Source of the DNA: Escherichia coli
GTDB taxonomy: Bacteria; Pseudomonadota; Gammaproteobacteria; Enterobacterales; Enterobacteriaceae
Assembly: GCF_003790525.1 (NCBI RefSeq)
Contig: NZ_CP033635.1
Reading direction: 5' to 3' (one strand)
Length of the DNA: 64,000 bases
Below are positions 10,359-38,329 of the stretch, in pieces. The position numbers and the translations under genes were made by a program. A model generated the notes under the pieces. That model did no database searches and was not told the origin of the DNA. It saw only the letters and a program-made list of their open reading frames with translations. Within the stretch, counting starts at the first letter, position 1, and every line of letters begins with the position of its first letter.

Positions 10359-12695
10359 ATGAAGCAAATTCGTCTGCTGGCGCAGTATTATGTTGACCTG
10401 ATGATGAAGTTAGGTCTGGTGCGCTTCTCAATGTTGCTGGCGCTGGCCCTCGTCGTTCTTGCCATTGTGGTACAAATGGCGGTAACCATGGTGCTGCATG
10501 GTCAGGTCGAAAGCATTGATGTTATTCGTTCTATCTTCTTTGGTTTGCTGATTACGCCGTGGGCGGTCTACTTTCTATCGGTGGTCGTCGAGCAACTGGA
10601 GGAGTCACGGCAACGTCTGTCACGACTGGTGCAAAAACTGGAGGAGATGCGCGAGCGCGATTTGAGCCTCAACGTTCAGTTAAAAGATAATATTGCCCAG
10701 CTAAATCAGGAAATCGCCGTTCGTGAAAAAGCGGAAGCAGAACTGCAGGAAACCTTCGGCCAACTGAAAATTGAAATCAAAGAGCGCGAAGAGACACAAA
10801 TTCAGCTCGAGCAGCAATCCTCATTCTTACGTTCCTTCCTTGATGCTTCACCCGACCTGGTTTTTTATCGTAACGAAGATAAAGAGTTTTCCGGCTGTAA
10901 CCGCGCGATGGAGCTGCTGACCGGAAAAAGCGAAAAACAACTGGTTCACCTGAAACCTGCTGATGTTTACTCACCGGAAGCCGCCGCAAAAGTCATTGAA
11001 ACCGATGAAAAAGTGTTCCGTCATAATGTGTCACTGACCTATGAACAGTGGCTGGATTACCCGGACGGGCGCAAAGCCTGCTTTGAAATCCGTAAAGTGC
11101 CGTACTACGACCGCGTGGGTAAACGTCACGGTTTGATGGGCTTTGGTCGCGACATTACCGAGCGTAAGCGGTATCAGGATGCGCTTGAACGGGCCAGCCG
11201 CGACAAAACGACGTTTATCTCCACCATCAGTCACGAATTGCGTACGCCGCTGAATGGTATCGTCGGCCTGAGCCGCATTCTGCTGGATACCGAACTCACC
11301 GCCGAGCAGGAAAAATATCTCAAAACCATCCATGTTTCGGCCGTCACGCTGGGGAATATCTTCAACGATATTATCGACATGGATAAGATGGAACGGCGCA
11401 AGGTCCAGCTTGATAATCAGCCGGTTGATTTCACCAGCTTCCTTGCCGATCTGGAAAATCTCTCCGCCTTGCAGGCGCAACAAAAAGGATTGCGCTTTAA
11501 CCTGGAGCCTACGCTGCCATTACCGCATCAGGTCATTACCGACGGGACGCGTTTACGGCAGATCCTGTGGAACCTCATCAGTAACGCCGTCAAATTCACC
11601 CAGCAAGGCCAGGTTACCGTGCGCGTGCGCTACGATGAAGGCGATATGCTGCATTTTGAAGTGGAAGATTCCGGCATTGGCATTCCGCAGGATGAGCTGG
11701 ATAAAATTTTCGCCATGTATTACCAGGTGAAAGACAGTCATGGCGGTAAACCTGCCACCGGCACCGGTATTGGTCTGGCCGTTTCTCGTCGTCTGGCGAA
11801 AAATATGGGCGGCGATATTACGGTTACCAGCGAACAGGGCAAAGGTTCAACCTTTACGTTGACGATCCACGCACCGTCGGTGGCAGAAGAGGTCGATGAT
11901 GCGTTTGATGAAGACGATATGCCTTTACCGGCGCTGAATGTACTGCTGGTGGAAGACATTGAACTGAACGTGATTGTCGCGCGTTCTGTGCTGGAAAAAT
12001 TAGGTAACAGCGTTGATGTCGCCATGACCGGCAAGGCGGCGCTGGAGATGTTTAAACCGGGCGAATACGACCTGGTATTGCTGGATATTCAGTTGCCAGA
12101 TATGACCGGGCTGGATATCTCTCGTGAACTGACGAAGCGTTATCCGCGCGAGGATTTACCACCGCTGGTGGCCTTAACCGCTAACGTGCTGAAAGACAAA
12201 CAAGAGTACCTCAATGCTGGAATGGATGATGTGCTGAGTAAGCCGCTTTCTGTTCCGGCGCTAACCGCGATGATCAAGAAATTCTGGGATACCCAGGATG
12301 ATGAGGAGAGTACGGTGACGACAGAAGAGAACAGTAAATCAGAAGCATTGCTCGATATTCCCATGCTGGAACAGTATCTCGAACTTGTAGGACCGAAGCT
12401 GATCACCGACGGGTTAGCGGTATTTGAGAAGATGATGCCGGGATATGTTAGCGTGCTGGAGTCGAATCTGACGGCGCAGGATAAAAAAGGCATTGTTGAG
12501 GAAGGACATAAAATTAAAGGTGCGGCGGGGTCAGTGGGGTTACGCCATCTGCAACAGTTGGGTCAGCAAATTCAGTCTCCTGACCTTCCCGCCTGGGAAG
12601 ATAACGTCGGTGAATGGATTGAAGAGATGAAAGAAGAGTGGCGTCACGACGTAGAAGTACTGAAAGCGTGGGTGGCAAAAGCTACTAAAAAATGA
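10359..12695 (+). CDS. arcB: aerobic respiration control sensor histidine kinase ArcB
   Basis: 778-aa ORF with HisKA motif (STISHELRTPLNGI), receiver and HPt domains. Confidence 0.97.
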   Translation: MKQIRLLAQYYVDLMMKLGLVRFSMLLALALVVLAIVVQMAVTMVLHGQVESIDVIRSIFFGLLITPWAVYFLSVVVEQLEESRQRLSRLVQKLEEMRERDLSLNVQLKDNIAQLNQEIAVREKAEAELQETFGQLKIEIKEREETQIQLEQQSSFLRSFLDASPDLVFYRNEDKEFSGCNRAMELLTGKSEKQLVHLKPADVYSPEAAAKVIETDEKVFRHNVSLTYEQWLDYPDGRKACFEIRKVPYYDRVGKRHGLMGFGRDITERKRYQDALERASRDKTTFISTISHELRTPLNGIVGLSRILLDTELTAEQEKYLKTIHVSAVTLGNIFNDIIDMDKMERRKVQLDNQPVDFTSFLADLENLSALQAQQKGLRFNLEPTLPLPHQVITDGTRLRQILWNLISNAVKFTQQGQVTVRVRYDEGDMLHFEVEDSGIGIPQDELDKIFAMYYQVKDSHGGKPATGTGIGLAVSRRLAKNMGGDITVTSEQGKGSTFTLTIHAPSVAEEVDDAFDEDDMPLPALNVLLVEDIELNVIVARSVLEKLGNSVDVAMTGKAALEMFKPGEYDLVLLDIQLPDMTGLDISRELTKRYPREDLPPLVALTANVLKDKQEYLNAGMDDVLSKPLSVPALTAMIKKFWDTQDDEESTVTTEENSKSEALLDIPMLEQYLELVGPKLITDGLAVFEKMMPGYVSVLESNLTAQDKKGIVEEGHKIKGAAGSVGLRHLQQLGQQIQSPDLPAWEDNVGEWIEEMKEEWRHDVEVLKAWVAKATKK

Positions 12696-12807
12696 CCCCG
12701 GCTAGACCGGGGTGCGCGAATACTGCGCCAACACCAGGGAAATCTTGGCTGCGCCGTAAATTATTATGATGAGTTACAAGGGCACAGCACTGTTTTTCAG
12801 GCCGCAC
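12687..12807 (-). ncRNA. arcZ: small RNA ArcZ (RyhA/SraH), 121 nt, overlapping the arcB 3' end
   Basis: Reverse strand reads GTGCGGCCTGAAAAACAGTGCTGTGCCC...CACCCCGGTCTAGCCGGGGTCATTTTTT, matching the ArcZ sequence as I remember it, including its terminator hairpin. Confidence 0.85.
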
Positions 12808-23318: not shown

Positions 23319-24918
<1,600 letters not shown>

Positions 24919-24922
24919 GTTC

Positions 24923-25474
24923 ATGCAAACGAAAAAAAATGAAATTTGGGTGGGTATCTTTTTATTAGCAGCACTGCTTGCGGCGCTTTTTGTTTGCCTG
25001 AAGGCAGCGAACGTGACGTCTATACGTACTGAACCGACCTATACGCTTTATGCGACGTTCGATAACATTGGCGGCCTGAAAGCGCGCTCTCCGGTCAGCA
25101 TTGGTGGCGTTGTTGTGGGCCGGGTGGCGGATATTACGCTGGACCCGAAAACCTATCTGCCACGCGTAACGCTGGAAATTGAACAACGTTATAACCACAT
25201 TCCTGATACCAGTTCGCTGAGCATTCGTACTTCCGGCCTGCTGGGGGAACAATATCTGGCATTAAACGTCGGTTTTGAAGACCCGGAACTGGGGACTGCT
25301 ATCCTGAAGGATGGCGATACAATTCAGGACACCAAGTCTGCGATGGTGCTGGAAGATCTCATTGGTCAGTTCCTTTACGGTAGTAAAGGCGATGACAATA
25401 AGAATAGTGGCGATGCGCCTGCTGCTGCGCCAGGTAATAATGAAACCACTGAACCTGTGGGTACAACGAAATAA
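24923..25474 (+). CDS. mlaD: MCE-domain phospholipid-binding protein MlaD
   Basis: ORF contains MQTKKNEIWVGIFLLAALLAALFVCLKAANV..., 183 aa. Confidence 0.9.
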   Translation: MQTKKNEIWVGIFLLAALLAALFVCLKAANVTSIRTEPTYTLYATFDNIGGLKARSPVSIGGVVVGRVADITLDPKTYLPRVTLEIEQRYNHIPDTSSLSIRTSGLLGEQYLALNVGFEDPELGTAILKDGDTIQDTKSAMVLEDLIGQFLYGSKGDDNKNSGDAPAAAPGNNETTEPVGTTK

Positions 25475-26127
<653 letters not shown>

Positions 26128-26128
<1 letters not shown>

Positions 26129-26421
26129 TGAGCGAGTCACTGAGCTGGATGCAGACGGGTGACACGCTGGCGCTATCCGGAGAGCTGGATCAGGACGTTC
26201 TGCTACCGCTTTGGGAAATGCGTGAGGAAGCGGTGAAGGGGATTACCTGCATCGATCTTAGCCGTGTGTCCCGCGTGGATACGGGTGGACTGGCACTGCT
26301 GCTCCATCTTATCGATCTGGCGAAAAAGCAGGGCAACAATGTGACGCTTCAGGGGGTAAACGACAAAGTGTATACCCTCGCGAAATTGTATAATTTGCCT
26401 GCTGATGTTCTGCCTCGTTAA
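26128..26421 (+). CDS. mlaB: STAS-domain protein MlaB
   Basis: ORF contains MSESLSWMQTGDTLALSGELDQDVLLP...; start overlaps the mlaC stop (TAATG). Confidence 0.88.
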
Positions 26422-26580
26422 ATTTTTTCAGGCCGGATATGGCGTTAACCGCCTGTCCGGCAAACCTGCCTGCAAGTCGAGCCTTGTCTGATTTATCAGC
26501 GAGGCTTTTTGCTTATTTATGCCAGCGCAACTTTGCTCTAAGATGTTTCGCTGATTTATTAACTGATGATTGAAGATCCC

Positions 26581-26835
26581 ATGGAAAATAATGAAATTCA
26601 GAGCGTGTTGATGAACGCTCTCTCCCTCCAGGAAGTCCACGTTTCCGGCGATGGCAGCCACTTTCAGGTTATTGCCGTGGGTGAGTTGTTTGACGGCATG
26701 AGTCGGGTTAAAAAACAGCAGACGGTCTATGGCCCGCTGATGGAATATATTGCGGATAACCGCATTCATGCTGTGTCGATCAAAGCGTATACCCCTGCGG
26801 AGTGGGCGCGCGATCGCAAACTGAACGGCTTTTGA
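26581..26835 (+). CDS. ibaG: BolA-family acid stress protein IbaG
   Basis: ORF contains [34 protein letters not shown]..., 84 aa. Confidence 0.88.
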
Positions 26836-26889
26836 GCTATGGGCGATTCGCCGGTAGCGGATATGAATTGTTAACTGAGAACAAACTAA

Positions 26890-28149
<1,260 letters not shown>

Positions 28150-28196
28150 TTGTCTGAGAGCTGGCAGCCCCGTTCGCGGGGCTACCGCCAGACCAC

Positions 28197-28475
28197 TCAT
28201 TTTTTCGGTTTAGTGTAGCTACGCATCAACTGCGTTCTGTCGATAAACTCATGGGTCTGCGGATCATGGTAGCGAGATGGCCAGATAATCCAGGGGTCAG
28301 TTCCCAGGGCTTTCGCAATAATCATCTCTCCTTTCGGCCAGGGGCGCGATAATGCGTTCGCCAGCGTTGAGGAACTCAAACCATTTCTGCGAGATTCCGC
28401 CGCCATTGACGTTCCCTTCTTGCGCAAACCCGCAATGATGTCAGCGGGATGCCAGTCAATGAAATTACTTTCCAT
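28197..28475 (-). CDS. sfsB: Ner-like DNA-binding protein SfsB (Nlp)
   Basis: 92-aa ORF MESNFIDWHPADIIAGLRKKGTSMAAESRRNGLSSSTLANAL... Confidence 0.9.
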   Translation of the reverse strand: MESNFIDWHPADIIAGLRKKGTSMAAESRRNGLSSSTLANALSRPWPKGEMIIAKALGTDPWIIWPSRYHDPQTHEFIDRTQLMRSYTKPKK

Positions 28476-28703
28476 CTTTCCTCACTCCTTAAGTTAGTCG
28501 CTTTCATTCAGAACACTTCTTCTGTCGAGCATCACTATACTCCTGATGGCCTATTGCTCTAAAAAGTTCCTGTAAAGAGTGTGAATATTCAGAATATATA
28601 AAGATACATACACTGGTTTTTCAGGCGTTATTGCGCTGAATAAGTGTTTTTATGGAACTTATTGGAATCATCCCGCGCACTGCGCGGGATGAGGGGGAGG
28701 GGA

Positions 28704-29675
28704 TTAACGATCGCGTTGAACAGCGATGTGCGCGAGGCCGATGAGTGCTTCTCGCCACGGGGTGTCCGGGAGCACCTGTAACGCTGCGATGGCTTTGTCT
28801 GCTTCTTCCTCGGCACGCTGACGCGTCCATTCAAGAGATCCACAAGCGTTCATTGCTTCCAGAACCGGTTCCAGAAGATGGCGACCGTTACCCTGTTCGA
28901 TGGCGGTACGAATCATCTGTGCCTGTTCTGGTGTGCCATGATGCATTGCATGCAGCAGCGGCAGCGTCGGTTTACCTTCGTTCAGATCGTCGCCGATGTT
29001 TTTACCTAACTGTTCGCCATCGGCATTGTAATCGAGTAAATCGTCGATCAACTGGAAAGCAGTGCCGAGATAGCGCCCATAATCCTGCAGGCCTTTCTCC
29101 TCCTCCGGCGTACAGCCAGCCAGAATCCCGGAACACTGCGCGGCAGCCTCAAACAGACGCGCGGTTTTGCTATAGATAACGCGCATGTAGTTTTCTTCAG
29201 TGATGTCCGGATCGTTAACGTTCATCAGTTGCAGAACTTCACCTTCTGCGATGACGTTTACGGCTTCTGACATGACTTCCAGCACTTTGAGCGAGCCGAG
29301 GCTGGTCATCATCTGGAACGCGCGGGTATAAATAAAATCGCCTACCAGCACGCTGGCGGCATTGCCAAATGCGGCGTTGGCGGTAGCTTTACCCCTGCGC
29401 ATATCTGATTCATCCACAACGTCGTCGTGCAGCAGAGTCGCCGTGTGGATAAACTCGATCAGGGCAGCAATGGTGACATGCGCATTTCCCTCATAGCCAA
29501 CAGCTCGTGCAGCCAGTACAGCAATCATCGGACGAATACGTTTACCGCCGCCGCTGACGATGTAATAGCCTAACTGATTGATCAGTTGGACGTCGGAATT
29601 AAGCTGCTCAAGGATTGCCGCATTAACACCCGCCATATCTTGCGCGGTTAACTCATTGATTTTTTCTAAATTCAT
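28704..29675 (-). CDS. ispB: octaprenyl diphosphate synthase
   Basis: 323-aa ORF with DDxxD motifs (LLHDDVVDESD; IDDLLDY). Confidence 0.95.
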   Translation of the reverse strand: MNLEKINELTAQDMAGVNAAILEQLNSDVQLINQLGYYIVSGGGKRIRPMIAVLAARAVGYEGNAHVTIAALIEFIHTATLLHDDVVDESDMRRGKATANAAFGNAASVLVGDFIYTRAFQMMTSLGSLKVLEVMSEAVNVIAEGEVLQLMNVNDPDITEENYMRVIYSKTARLFEAAAQCSGILAGCTPEEEKGLQDYGRYLGTAFQLIDDLLDYNADGEQLGKNIGDDLNEGKPTLPLLHAMHHGTPEQAQMIRTAIEQGNGRHLLEPVLEAMNACGSLEWTRQRAEEEADKAIAALQVLPDTPWREALIGLAHIAVQRDR

Positions 29676-29832
29676 CGCAAAAGCCGGGCTTTTCGCCCCG
29701 ATTACCTTACTGTGAACAAAGGCAACTTAGGGTTTATGGTTAGGAATATAGGGTGATTGTACTGAAAAAATGGCACAGATAAACGTTACCGTACAAGTTG
29801 TGTTTTTTTTCTTCGTGTATTGACTGTAGCAC

Positions 29833-29861
29833 TTGTCAAAGGCGTGCGTTTTGCGTAATAT
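29833..29861 (+). promoter_or_regulatory. candidate sigma70 promoter of rplU-rpmA (TTGTCA, 17-nt spacer, TAATAT)
   Basis: Hexamer match about 70 nt upstream of rplU; motif only. Confidence 0.35.
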
Positions 29862-29897
29862 TCGCGCCCTATTGTGAATATTTATAGCGCACTCTGA

Positions 29898-30523
<626 letters not shown>

Positions 30524-30550
30524 GTTTTTCGCGTCCCGGTAACGGATGAA

Positions 30551-30578
30551 AGCCCCGCAACACGTTGCGGGGCTTTTT
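30551..30578 (+). terminator. intrinsic terminator after rpmA
   Basis: agccccgcaa-cacg-ttgcggggct hairpin followed by TTTTT. Confidence 0.75.
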
Positions 30579-30649
30579 ACATTCGATAACCGGTAAAAAT
30601 GCGCATGGTGCGACGTTAATCCGCAAATGCGCTTTGCAGGGAATACGGT

Positions 30650-31615
30650 ATGAAGCAGCAGGCAGGCATTGGCATTCTTTTGGCGCTCACCACAGCAATT
30701 TGCTGGGGGGCGTTGCCAATCGCAATGAAGCAGGTGCTGGAGGTGATGGAACCTCCGACAATCGTGTTTTACCGTTTCTTGATGGCGAGTATTGGCCTTG
30801 GTGCCATTCTTGCGGTGAAGAAGAGGTTGCCGCCATTACGCGTGTTTCGTAAGCCACGCTGGTTGATTTTGTTGGCAGTGGCGACCGCCGGGCTGTTTGG
30901 GAACTTCATCCTGTTCAGCTCATCCTTGCAATACCTGAGTCCGACCGCTTCGCAGGTGATTGGGCAACTCTCGCCAGTTGGCATGATGGTTGCCAGCGTA
31001 TTTATCCTGAAAGAGAAAATGCGCAGCACTCAGGTTGTAGGGGCATTGATGCTCCTGAGCGGCCTGGTGATGTTTTTTAACACCAGTCTGGTCGAGATAT
31101 TTACCAAGCTCACCGATTACACCTGGGGAGTAATCTTTGGGGTCGGTGCGGCGACGGTGTGGGTGAGTTATGGCGTGGCGCAAAAGGTTTTATTGCGTCG
31201 GCTGGCCTCACCGCAGATCCTGTTTTTACTGTACACTTTATGTACAATTGCGCTCTTCCCTCTGGCAAAGCCTGGAGTGATAGCGCAGCTTAGCCACTGG
31301 CAGCTCGCATGTTTAATTTTTTGCGGACTGAATACATTGGTAGGATATGGCGCCCTGGCGGAAGCGATGGCTCGCTGGCAGGCAGCGCAGGTGAGCGCGA
31401 TCATCACGCTCACCCCACTGTTTACGCTGTTTTTTTCAGATCTTTTATCACTGGCCTGGCCCGATTTCTTCGCCAGACCGATGTTAAACCTTTTAGGTTA
31501 TCTCGGTGCGTTTGTCGTGGTTGCGGGCGCGATGTATTCCGCCATTGGTCATCGTATTTGGGGCGGATTACGTAAGCATACAACGGTGGTATCGCAACCC
31601 CGCGCAGGCGAATGA
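30650..31615 (+). CDS. yhbE: EamA/DMT-family inner membrane transporter YhbE
   Basis: 321-aa polytopic membrane ORF. Confidence 0.88.
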   Translation: MKQQAGIGILLALTTAICWGALPIAMKQVLEVMEPPTIVFYRFLMASIGLGAILAVKKRLPPLRVFRKPRWLILLAVATAGLFGNFILFSSSLQYLSPTASQVIGQLSPVGMMVASVFILKEKMRSTQVVGALMLLSGLVMFFNTSLVEIFTKLTDYTWGVIFGVGAATVWVSYGVAQKVLLRRLASPQILFLLYTLCTIALFPLAKPGVIAQLSHWQLACLIFCGLNTLVGYGALAEAMARWQAAQVSAIITLTPLFTLFFSDLLSLAWPDFFARPMLNLLGYLGAFVVVAGAMYSAIGHRIWGGLRKHTTVVSQPRAGE

Positions 31616-32803
<1,188 letters not shown>

Positions 32804-32808
32804 TCAGC

Positions 32809-32840
32809 AAAACCCCGGCCATGCGCCGGGGTTTCTCTTT
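32809..32840. terminator. bidirectional terminator hairpin between convergent obgE and dacB
   Basis: AAAA-ccccggc-catgc-gccgggg-TTTCTCTTT: 7-bp GC stem flanked by an A run and a T-rich run. Confidence 0.65.
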
Positions 32841-32843
32841 AGA

Positions 32844-38240: not shown

Positions 38241-38273
38241 GTTCCCGCATCAGATGACTGTATTTGTACCGAA

Positions 38274-38301
38274 AACCCCGGGGCGTGCTCCGGGGTTTTT
38301 T
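38274..38301 (+). terminator. hairpin plus T-run after ftsH (partial terminator within the operon)
   Basis: aaccccgg...ccggggtt 8-bp stem followed by TTTTTT. Confidence 0.65.
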
Positions 38302-38329
38302 CTTATCAATTCATACCAGGGATAACACC

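Follow-up and report, generated by a model that had tools for sequence, protein, structure and literature searches.

Transcripts that are terminated in a Rho-dependent manner have been described to end just past stable stem-loops that lack U-rich tails (Dar & Sorek 2018, NAR, PMC6061677). According to that study, such ends are made by PNPase/RNase II trimming, with the rut sites located downstream, and a protective role of such stem-loops was put forward as a hypothesis by Peters et al. 2012. The study also states that terminators can switch mode via their uridine content and discusses transitional, inefficient intrinsic terminators with Rho as a backup (PMC6061677). As summarized in a preprint (bioRxiv 10.1101/2022.10.23.513370), Ju et al. 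2019 reported that hundreds of E. coli genes have a convergent architecture in which two genes share one terminating hairpin without intrinsic-terminator features; the preprint describes these terminators as Rho-independent. REP elements are GC-rich extragenic palindromes without a U-tract in 3' UTRs, present in many dispersed copies, and they have also been tied to Rho-dependent ends and mRNA protection (PMC6061677).

Here, we analyzed a GC-rich hairpin between the convergent genes murA and sfsB in a 64,000-nucleotide stretch of the E. coli chromosome, hereafter called the window. Bases 27600-28700 of the window are 100% identical to strain SMS-3-5 and other strains, and the murA/sfsB region was found in 5,425 of 5,426 complete E. 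coli genomes. According to the RefSeq annotation of identical E. coli records, murA (+) and sfsB (-) face each other, and ispB lies beyond sfsB. The murA gene stops with TAA at 28147-28149, and the sfsB stop codon reads TCA on the + strand at 28197-28199, leaving 16 nt from the murA stop to the stem and 13 nt from the stem to the sfsB stop. The hairpin sequence, the coordinates, the distances to murA and sfsB and the 47-bp spacer given in a first-pass annotation of this DNA were all exact when we re-read the sequence. The features discussed below are collected in Table 1.

Table 1. Features of the murA-sfsB locus, in window positions unless marked as K-12 coordinates.
Feature	Position	Strand	Basis
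murA CDS (UDP-N-acetylglucosamine 1-carboxyvinyltransferase)	26890..28149	+	ORF list; RefSeq annotation of 100%-identical E. coli records
sfsB (nlp) CDS, 92 aa, Ner-like HTH regulator	28197..28475	-	ORF list; RefSeq; homologues with PF13693, named SfsB
Convergent intergenic spacer, 47 bp	28150..28196	.	sequence and ORF list
Core hairpin AGCCCCG-TTCG-CGGGGCT, 7-bp stem, 4-nt loop	28166..28183	.	sequence and folding
Extended hairpin	28161..28191	.	folding, both strands
Longest murA-sense fold, -24.2 kcal/mol	28155..28199	+	folding
Steady-state murA mRNA 3' ends, E. coli K-12	28188..28190	+	Term-seq (PMC7815308) and SMRT-Cappable-seq (PMC6131387)
T6 run (U6 in murA-sense RNA), two C-terminal Lys codons of sfsB	28200..28205	+	sequence
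C-rich, G-poor murA-sense read-through RNA, rut-like candidate	28464..28543	+	C/G = 3.57, >99th percentile of window
First 80 nt of sfsB-sense RNA past hairpin, antisense to murA 3' end	28086..28165	-	C/G = 1.79, >95th percentile
Rho region, murA strand, beyond far end of sfsB	K-12 3334816(-), ~28568	+	score 5.0, p = 1.8e-11 (PMC7815308)
Rho region, sfsB strand, antisense to murA	K-12 3335370(+), ~28014	-	score 7.8, p = 9e-14 (PMC7815308)

We consider the hairpin to be best explained as a stem-loop that sets the 3' end of a Rho-terminated ibaG-murA mRNA and stabilises it, and thereby as a member of the class of Dar & Sorek 2018, and we give this reading a probability of roughly 0.6. It draws directly on the hairpin itself, the mapped murA 3' ends, the bicyclomycin-sensitive regions on both strands and the conservation of the hairpin across genera. 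From these data we infer exonuclease trimming at the murA 3' end and rut sites further downstream.

Folding confirmed a strong hairpin on both strands. The arms AGCCCCG (28166-28172) and CGGGGCT (28177-28183) enclose a TTCG loop (28173-28176), which reads UUCG in the murA-sense RNA and CGAA in the sfsB-sense RNA, and the fold energy of the core is -12.8 kcal/mol on either strand. In the extended hairpin of the murA-sense RNA, CUGGC (28161-28165) pairs with GCCAG (28187-28191), leaving a 3-nt bulge, ACC (28184-28186), and lowering the energy to -20.5 kcal/mol. The extended hairpin of the sfsB-sense RNA contains an unbroken 10-bp stem, GGUAGCCCCG/CGGGGCUGCC, with a G-U pair, and has an energy of -21.6 kcal/mol. 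The longest murA-sense fold rests on a weak 4-bp helix of UGAG (28155-28158) and CUCA (28196-28199), which takes in the nucleotides complementary to the sfsB stop codon and borders directly on the T6 run; a 2x4 internal loop splits this helix from the strong stems. Folding of the 76-nt context gave z = -2.55 for the murA strand and z = -5.48 for the sfsB strand.

Perfect stems with 7 or more base pairs, 5 or more of them G/C, gave 19 register hits (about 12 hairpins) in the 64-kb window, as compared to 8.3 +/- 3.0 in dinucleotide shuffles. Because shuffled windows give only about 8 such stems, it is improbable that a hairpin of this kind should fall wholly within this 47-bp spacer by chance; simple arithmetic from the shuffle count puts the chance at about 0.004.

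The 3' end of the murA mRNA has been mapped in K-12 by two independent methods, and both place it at the hairpin. In the Term-seq data of Adams et al. 2021 (PMC7815308, Supplementary file 1), the dominant "primary" end given for murA is 3335196(-) in LB at OD 0.4 and 3335194(-) in M63, which correspond to window positions 28188 and 28190, respectively. By SMRT-Cappable-seq in rich medium, Yan et al. 2018 (PMC6131387, Supplementary Data 1) obtained capped, full-length ibaG-murA reads running from a TSS at 3336832 to a TTS at 3335194. The counts at this site are small (16 reads reaching it): 10 reads stop at 3335194, 4 stop within 50 bp downstream and 2 pass the murA TTS, by a median of about 210 nt (PMC6131387). 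The murA RNAs thus finish with ...CGGGGCUACCGC or ...ACCGCCA, in a GC-rich tail that extends 5-7 nt beyond the core stem. We checked the coordinate transfer against NC_000913.3 by regenerating the context strings printed in the supplement of PMC7815308. All of the experimental data are from K-12; its hairpin does not differ from that of the window, and across the surrounding 161 bp the two strains share 98.8% identity.

These data fit, for murA, the suggestion of the first-pass annotation that the element may be a stability hairpin, since both datasets, independently of each other, put the dominant 3' ends 5-7 nt beyond the core stem. It had also named Term-seq as the check, with transcript ends elsewhere counting against the hairpin, and the murA end falls at the hairpin and not elsewhere. 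Neither of the two datasets lists a 3' end for sfsB (PMC7815308 Term-seq, PMC6131387 SMRT-Cappable-seq). The supplements of TERMITe (PMC12207403) contain no entry for murA or sfsB, and the paper on 72 Rho terminators (PMC9160355) makes no mention of murA, sfsB or ibaG. The murA 3' end is therefore already present in two published tables, and nobody has discussed it individually.

The hairpin shares several traits with a canonical intrinsic terminator: it is GC-rich, it has a terminator-like size and energy, and it follows shortly after a stop codon. However, the U-tract that should adjoin the stem is missing. The tail directly after the strong murA-sense stem reads ACCGCCAGACC, and the tail past the core and extended stems reads ACCGCCAGACCACUCA, neither of which provides the U-tract of about 7-8 nt that characterizes an intrinsic terminator. 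The T6 run begins 16 nt beyond the core stem; up to 60 nt from the hairpin, the murA strand has no other run of four or more T and the sfsB strand has none at all. The earlier claim of no U-run on either strand thus holds inside the spacer and beside the core stem and fails for the murA strand as a whole, where T6 is found at 28200-28205.

A consensus promoter and terminator scan of positions 26000-30500 did not call the hairpin, and an Rfam scan of 24000-32000 at E <= 1 returned no match at the hairpin locus. The mapped ends at 28188/28190 are located upstream of the T6 run and hence outside any U-tract. Taken together, the silent scan, the lack of an adjoining U-tract and the position of the ends agree with the view that this is not a canonical terminator.

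For contrast, a textbook intrinsic terminator, AAAGCCCCGCAACACGTTGCGGGGCTTTTT, is present after rpmA in the same window (30549-30578, +). The sole Rfam match in 24000-32000 was an unrelated, weak hit to Thr_leader at 30489-30581 (E = 0.54), which probably merely reflects the rpmA terminator hairpin.

Evidence for Rho comes from DirectRNA-seq with and without bicyclomycin, a Rho inhibitor, scored in 800-nt windows (PMC7815308, Supplementary file 2). A Rho-termination region is listed on each strand, the two flanking the hairpin (Table 1). On the murA strand, the upstream/downstream reads changed from 105/25 without the drug to 119/142 with the drug, and on the sfsB strand from 119/12 to 161/127 (PMC7815308); bicyclomycin also unleashes new antisense initiation, so that the downstream rise need not represent read-through from murA or sfsB. 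The base composition of the RNA downstream of the hairpin is consistent with Rho loading. On the murA strand, the C-rich, G-poor stretch sits just upstream of the Rho peak, and on the sfsB strand the Rho peak lies just beyond the first 80 nt past the hairpin, in which C likewise exceeds G. Because the T6 run sits 16 nt away and Rho regions are found downstream on both strands, the terminating agent is likely to be Rho and not the hairpin.

Similarities to the class of Dar & Sorek 2018 are several. At murA, a stable GC stem-loop is located right upstream of a precise steady-state 3' end, the tail is low in uridine and no A-tract precedes the stem. Moreover, on both strands bicyclomycin-sensitive termination, at 800-nt resolution, is accompanied by downstream RNA with more C than G. 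The locus differs from the described cases in that PNPase/RNase II trimming is inferred for murA and the Rho evidence has a resolution of 800 nt.

If the hairpin belongs to this class, polymerase would mostly pass it, because no U-tract follows the stem, and would continue into untranslated RNA antisense to the neighbouring gene. Rho would load on this C-rich, G-poor antisense RNA and terminate transcription within a few hundred nucleotides. The 3'-to-5' exonucleases PNPase and RNase II would then trim the tail until blocked by the GC stem, leaving ends 5-7 nt past it. The sfsB mRNA, which is weakly expressed, probably also has its 3' end set and shielded by the hairpin.

The most serious alternative is leaky intrinsic termination of a non-canonical type at the end of murA, with Rho serving as a backstop for read-through; either the long, imperfect hairpin at 28155-28199 together with the U6 directly after it or the core stem alone would release a fraction of the polymerases. 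Under this explanation, RNAs released at U6 would be nibbled back to 28188/28190. Weak intrinsic termination at the hairpin and the T6 run may indeed occur on the murA strand, because the run is only 16 nt downstream there, and the longest fold directly abuts it. The full-length reads count against the protective model at this point: 10 of 16 end at the hairpin, the 4 others that stop nearby are within 50 bp and just 2 run far beyond, and a fairly efficient stop at the hairpin would give the same pattern. In addition, termination induced by the hairpin would release RNA at just this distance of 5-7 nt from the stem, many relatives carry a true hairpin with a U-tract at the same place, and transitional inefficient terminators with a Rho backup have been discussed (PMC6061677).

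However, the helix that adjoins U6 is merely 4 bp long and is cut off from the strong stems by the internal loop. Release at U6 should give a dominant 3' end in or after the run, at about 28206-28208, and the observed ends lie 10-18 nt upstream, at positions where the RNA-DNA hybrid would be GC-rich. The consensus scan was silent, the site was labelled "novelTTS" with no known terminator nearby (PMC6131387), and with bicyclomycin the downstream signal equals the upstream signal. On balance, we consider a leaky intrinsic terminator possible but rather unlikely.

Another explanation is a bidirectional terminator of the collision type, in which the hairpin pauses polymerases arriving from both sides and head-on and trailing collisions dislodge them, with neither Rho nor U-tracts involved. 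The murA-sfsB locus resembles the collision-driven terminators of Ju, Li & Liu 2019, as summarized in the preprint, in that a convergent pair shares one hairpin without the features of an intrinsic terminator, and the proposal in the first-pass annotation that the hairpin might act as a bidirectional pause is compatible with such a mechanism. Yet that class is described there as Rho-independent (bioRxiv 10.1101/2022.10.23.513370), and here bicyclomycin-sensitive regions (800-nt resolution) are present on both strands. Collisions also need traffic from two sides, whereas sfsB has no detectable 3' end and seems too weakly transcribed to appear in either 3'-end dataset. Since sfsB is apparently weakly transcribed, head-on collisions should be rare, and we regard termination by collision as quite improbable.

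The spacer was also compared across genera, using MurA-anchored loci from species genomes and ten SfsB-anchored contigs. The gene order ispB-sfsB-murA was conserved among the relatives examined, and a strong hairpin was found in the spacer in all 17 Enterobacteriaceae loci, despite turnover of its sequence between genera. The loci differed in the U-tract. A canonical hairpin with a U-tract was observed in Cronobacter, Kosakonia, Buttiauxella, Atlantibacter, Mangrovibacter, Klebsiella sp. BIGb0407, Enterobacter sp. BIGb0383 and Ca. Pantoea, and these spacers were often bidirectional, with an A-tract on the opposite side. The U-tract was missing or degenerate in Escherichia, Superficieibacter, Raoultella, Citrobacter, Lelliottia, an Enterobacter, Kluyvera and, in part, Salmonella (UUGUUUUAC). 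Genera without sfsB downstream (Yersinia, Brenneria, Vibrio, Haemophilus, Aeromonas) also have canonical terminators after murA.

In an alignment of six U-less hairpins from sister genera, 96.7% of the cells were paired and compensatory double changes were present in 4 of 10 pairs, a level reached by 2 of 500 shuffles; slid controls gave 0-1. The covariation was counted among these six hairpins, and the E. coli hairpin was compared to them by eye. Its loop is much shorter than the loops of the six, and a MAFFT alignment of nine genera misaligned the short-loop hairpins of Escherichia and Superficieibacter. A covariance model built from the six missed the E. coli hairpin at E <= 1 and matched other GC hairpins in the window. 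Judged from visual similarity (CAGCCCC...GGGGCUG), the E. coli hairpin appears to be homologous to those of the sister genera.

Further GC hairpins of the ACCCCGG...CCGGGGT type occur in the window at 38267-38306, 32800-32841 and 12695-12713, two of which score weakly against the sister-genus model.

The distribution of U-tracts among the outgroups suggests that the U-less state is derived. The hairpin probably arose when an intrinsic terminator of the canonical, often bidirectional, kind lost its U-tracts. A derived U-less state would fit the remark of Dar & Sorek on mode switching by uridine content (PMC6061677), and the series of orthologous spacers, from canonical bidirectional to U-less, would illustrate the proposed switching between intrinsic and Rho-dependent termination through uridine content alone.

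The C-terminus of SfsB, encoded at 28197-28220 in the window, also varies among these genera. In three loci fetched by SfsB (Cronobacter, Buttiauxella and Atlantibacter), all with canonical U-tract terminators, the protein has 87 aa and ends in ...LIR(H/K/S)R. The U-less genera have variable Lys-rich C-terminal extensions, giving proteins of 90-96 aa, with Kosakonia as an exception in combining 91 aa with a canonical terminator. In E. coli, the final KK of SfsB is encoded by the T6 run. It may be, speculatively, that the extensions were recruited from the former A/U-tract of a bidirectional terminator.

Within E. coli, the 44-nt hairpin region was identical in 4,491 of 5,425 genomes and differed by 1-2 bases in another 931, and in the sampled variants the changes fell in the loop or the flanks and never altered a stem base. 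A common haplotype among the 931 has the loop UUCG changed to UACG (28174) together with G28158A, with unchanged stems. Both loops are UNCG-type tetraloops in the murA-sense RNA.

In one strain, E20 (NZ_CP121147.1), an IS150 element is inserted within the hairpin tetraloop with a 4-bp TTCG target duplication (L097 1-130, L098 100-231). The insertion parts the hairpin arms by about 1.4 kb and leaves the coding sequences of murA and sfsB intact on either side. E20 is thus a natural hairpin knock-out, and evidently the cell can live without an intact hairpin.

That the hairpin has no function and is just what remains of an old terminator's palindrome, with the 3' ends there being a passive by-product without effect on fitness, would suit the intact genes of E20 and the sequence turnover between genera, but is very improbable given the strong hairpin in 17 of 17 loci with compensatory changes, the unchanged stem in all sampled E. 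coli variants, the identity of the 44-nt region in 4,491 of 5,425 genomes and the fact that the hairpin demonstrably sets the murA mRNA end.

A REP element was rejected. The hairpin shares with REP elements its GC-rich palindrome, its extragenic place in a 3' UTR and the lack of a U-tract, but it is present as a single copy (median of one place per genome over 5,425 genomes), in contrast to the many dispersed copies of REP elements. Presumably, it also does not resemble the REP consensus.

By this analysis, the essential gene murA gains a defined mRNA 3' end (28188/28190) and a probable mode of termination, by Rho with a protective stem-loop. Hairpins that lack a U-tract are not unusual, being the norm for Rho-terminated E. 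coli genes, and the locus is an ordinary example of a well-known kind of element, with little significance beyond annotation. It could be imagined that the loss of the U-tract in the Escherichia-Salmonella-Citrobacter-Klebsiella/Enterobacter lineage was itself functional, turning a bidirectional terminator into a read-through point from which transcription of the murA operon would proceed antisense across all of sfsB until a Rho stop near the sfsB promoter. This scenario we hold to be very unlikely; if true, silencing of sfsB would be coupled to murA expression and Rho activity, with the hairpin keeping the murA mRNA stable.

Two further sites were noted near the locus. A second U-less GC hairpin, ATCCCGCG-CAGTG-CGCGGGAT followed by GAUUCCAAUAAG, is located at 28670-28690 (-), 13 nt after the ispB stop codon (28704-28706), in the gap that separates ispB from sfsB, which runs in the same direction. 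Around the matching K-12 coordinate, ~3334714, the Term-seq data list no 3' end (PMC7815308). The other site is in the gap between mlaB and ibaG, where a strong "orphan" Term-seq 3' end is found at 26510 (+), 71 nt upstream of ibaG (K-12 3336874/3336873(-); PMC7815308). The RNA ends with ...CAGCGAGGCUUUUU, and the site has an intrinsic-terminator score of 2.6 and a Rho score of 1.2, that is, not Rho-dependent (PMC7815308). SMRT-Cappable-seq reads also span mlaD-mlaC-mlaB-ibaG-murA (PMC6131387). At the orphan end, transcription passing from the mla genes into ibaG-murA may meet a partial terminator or an attenuator.
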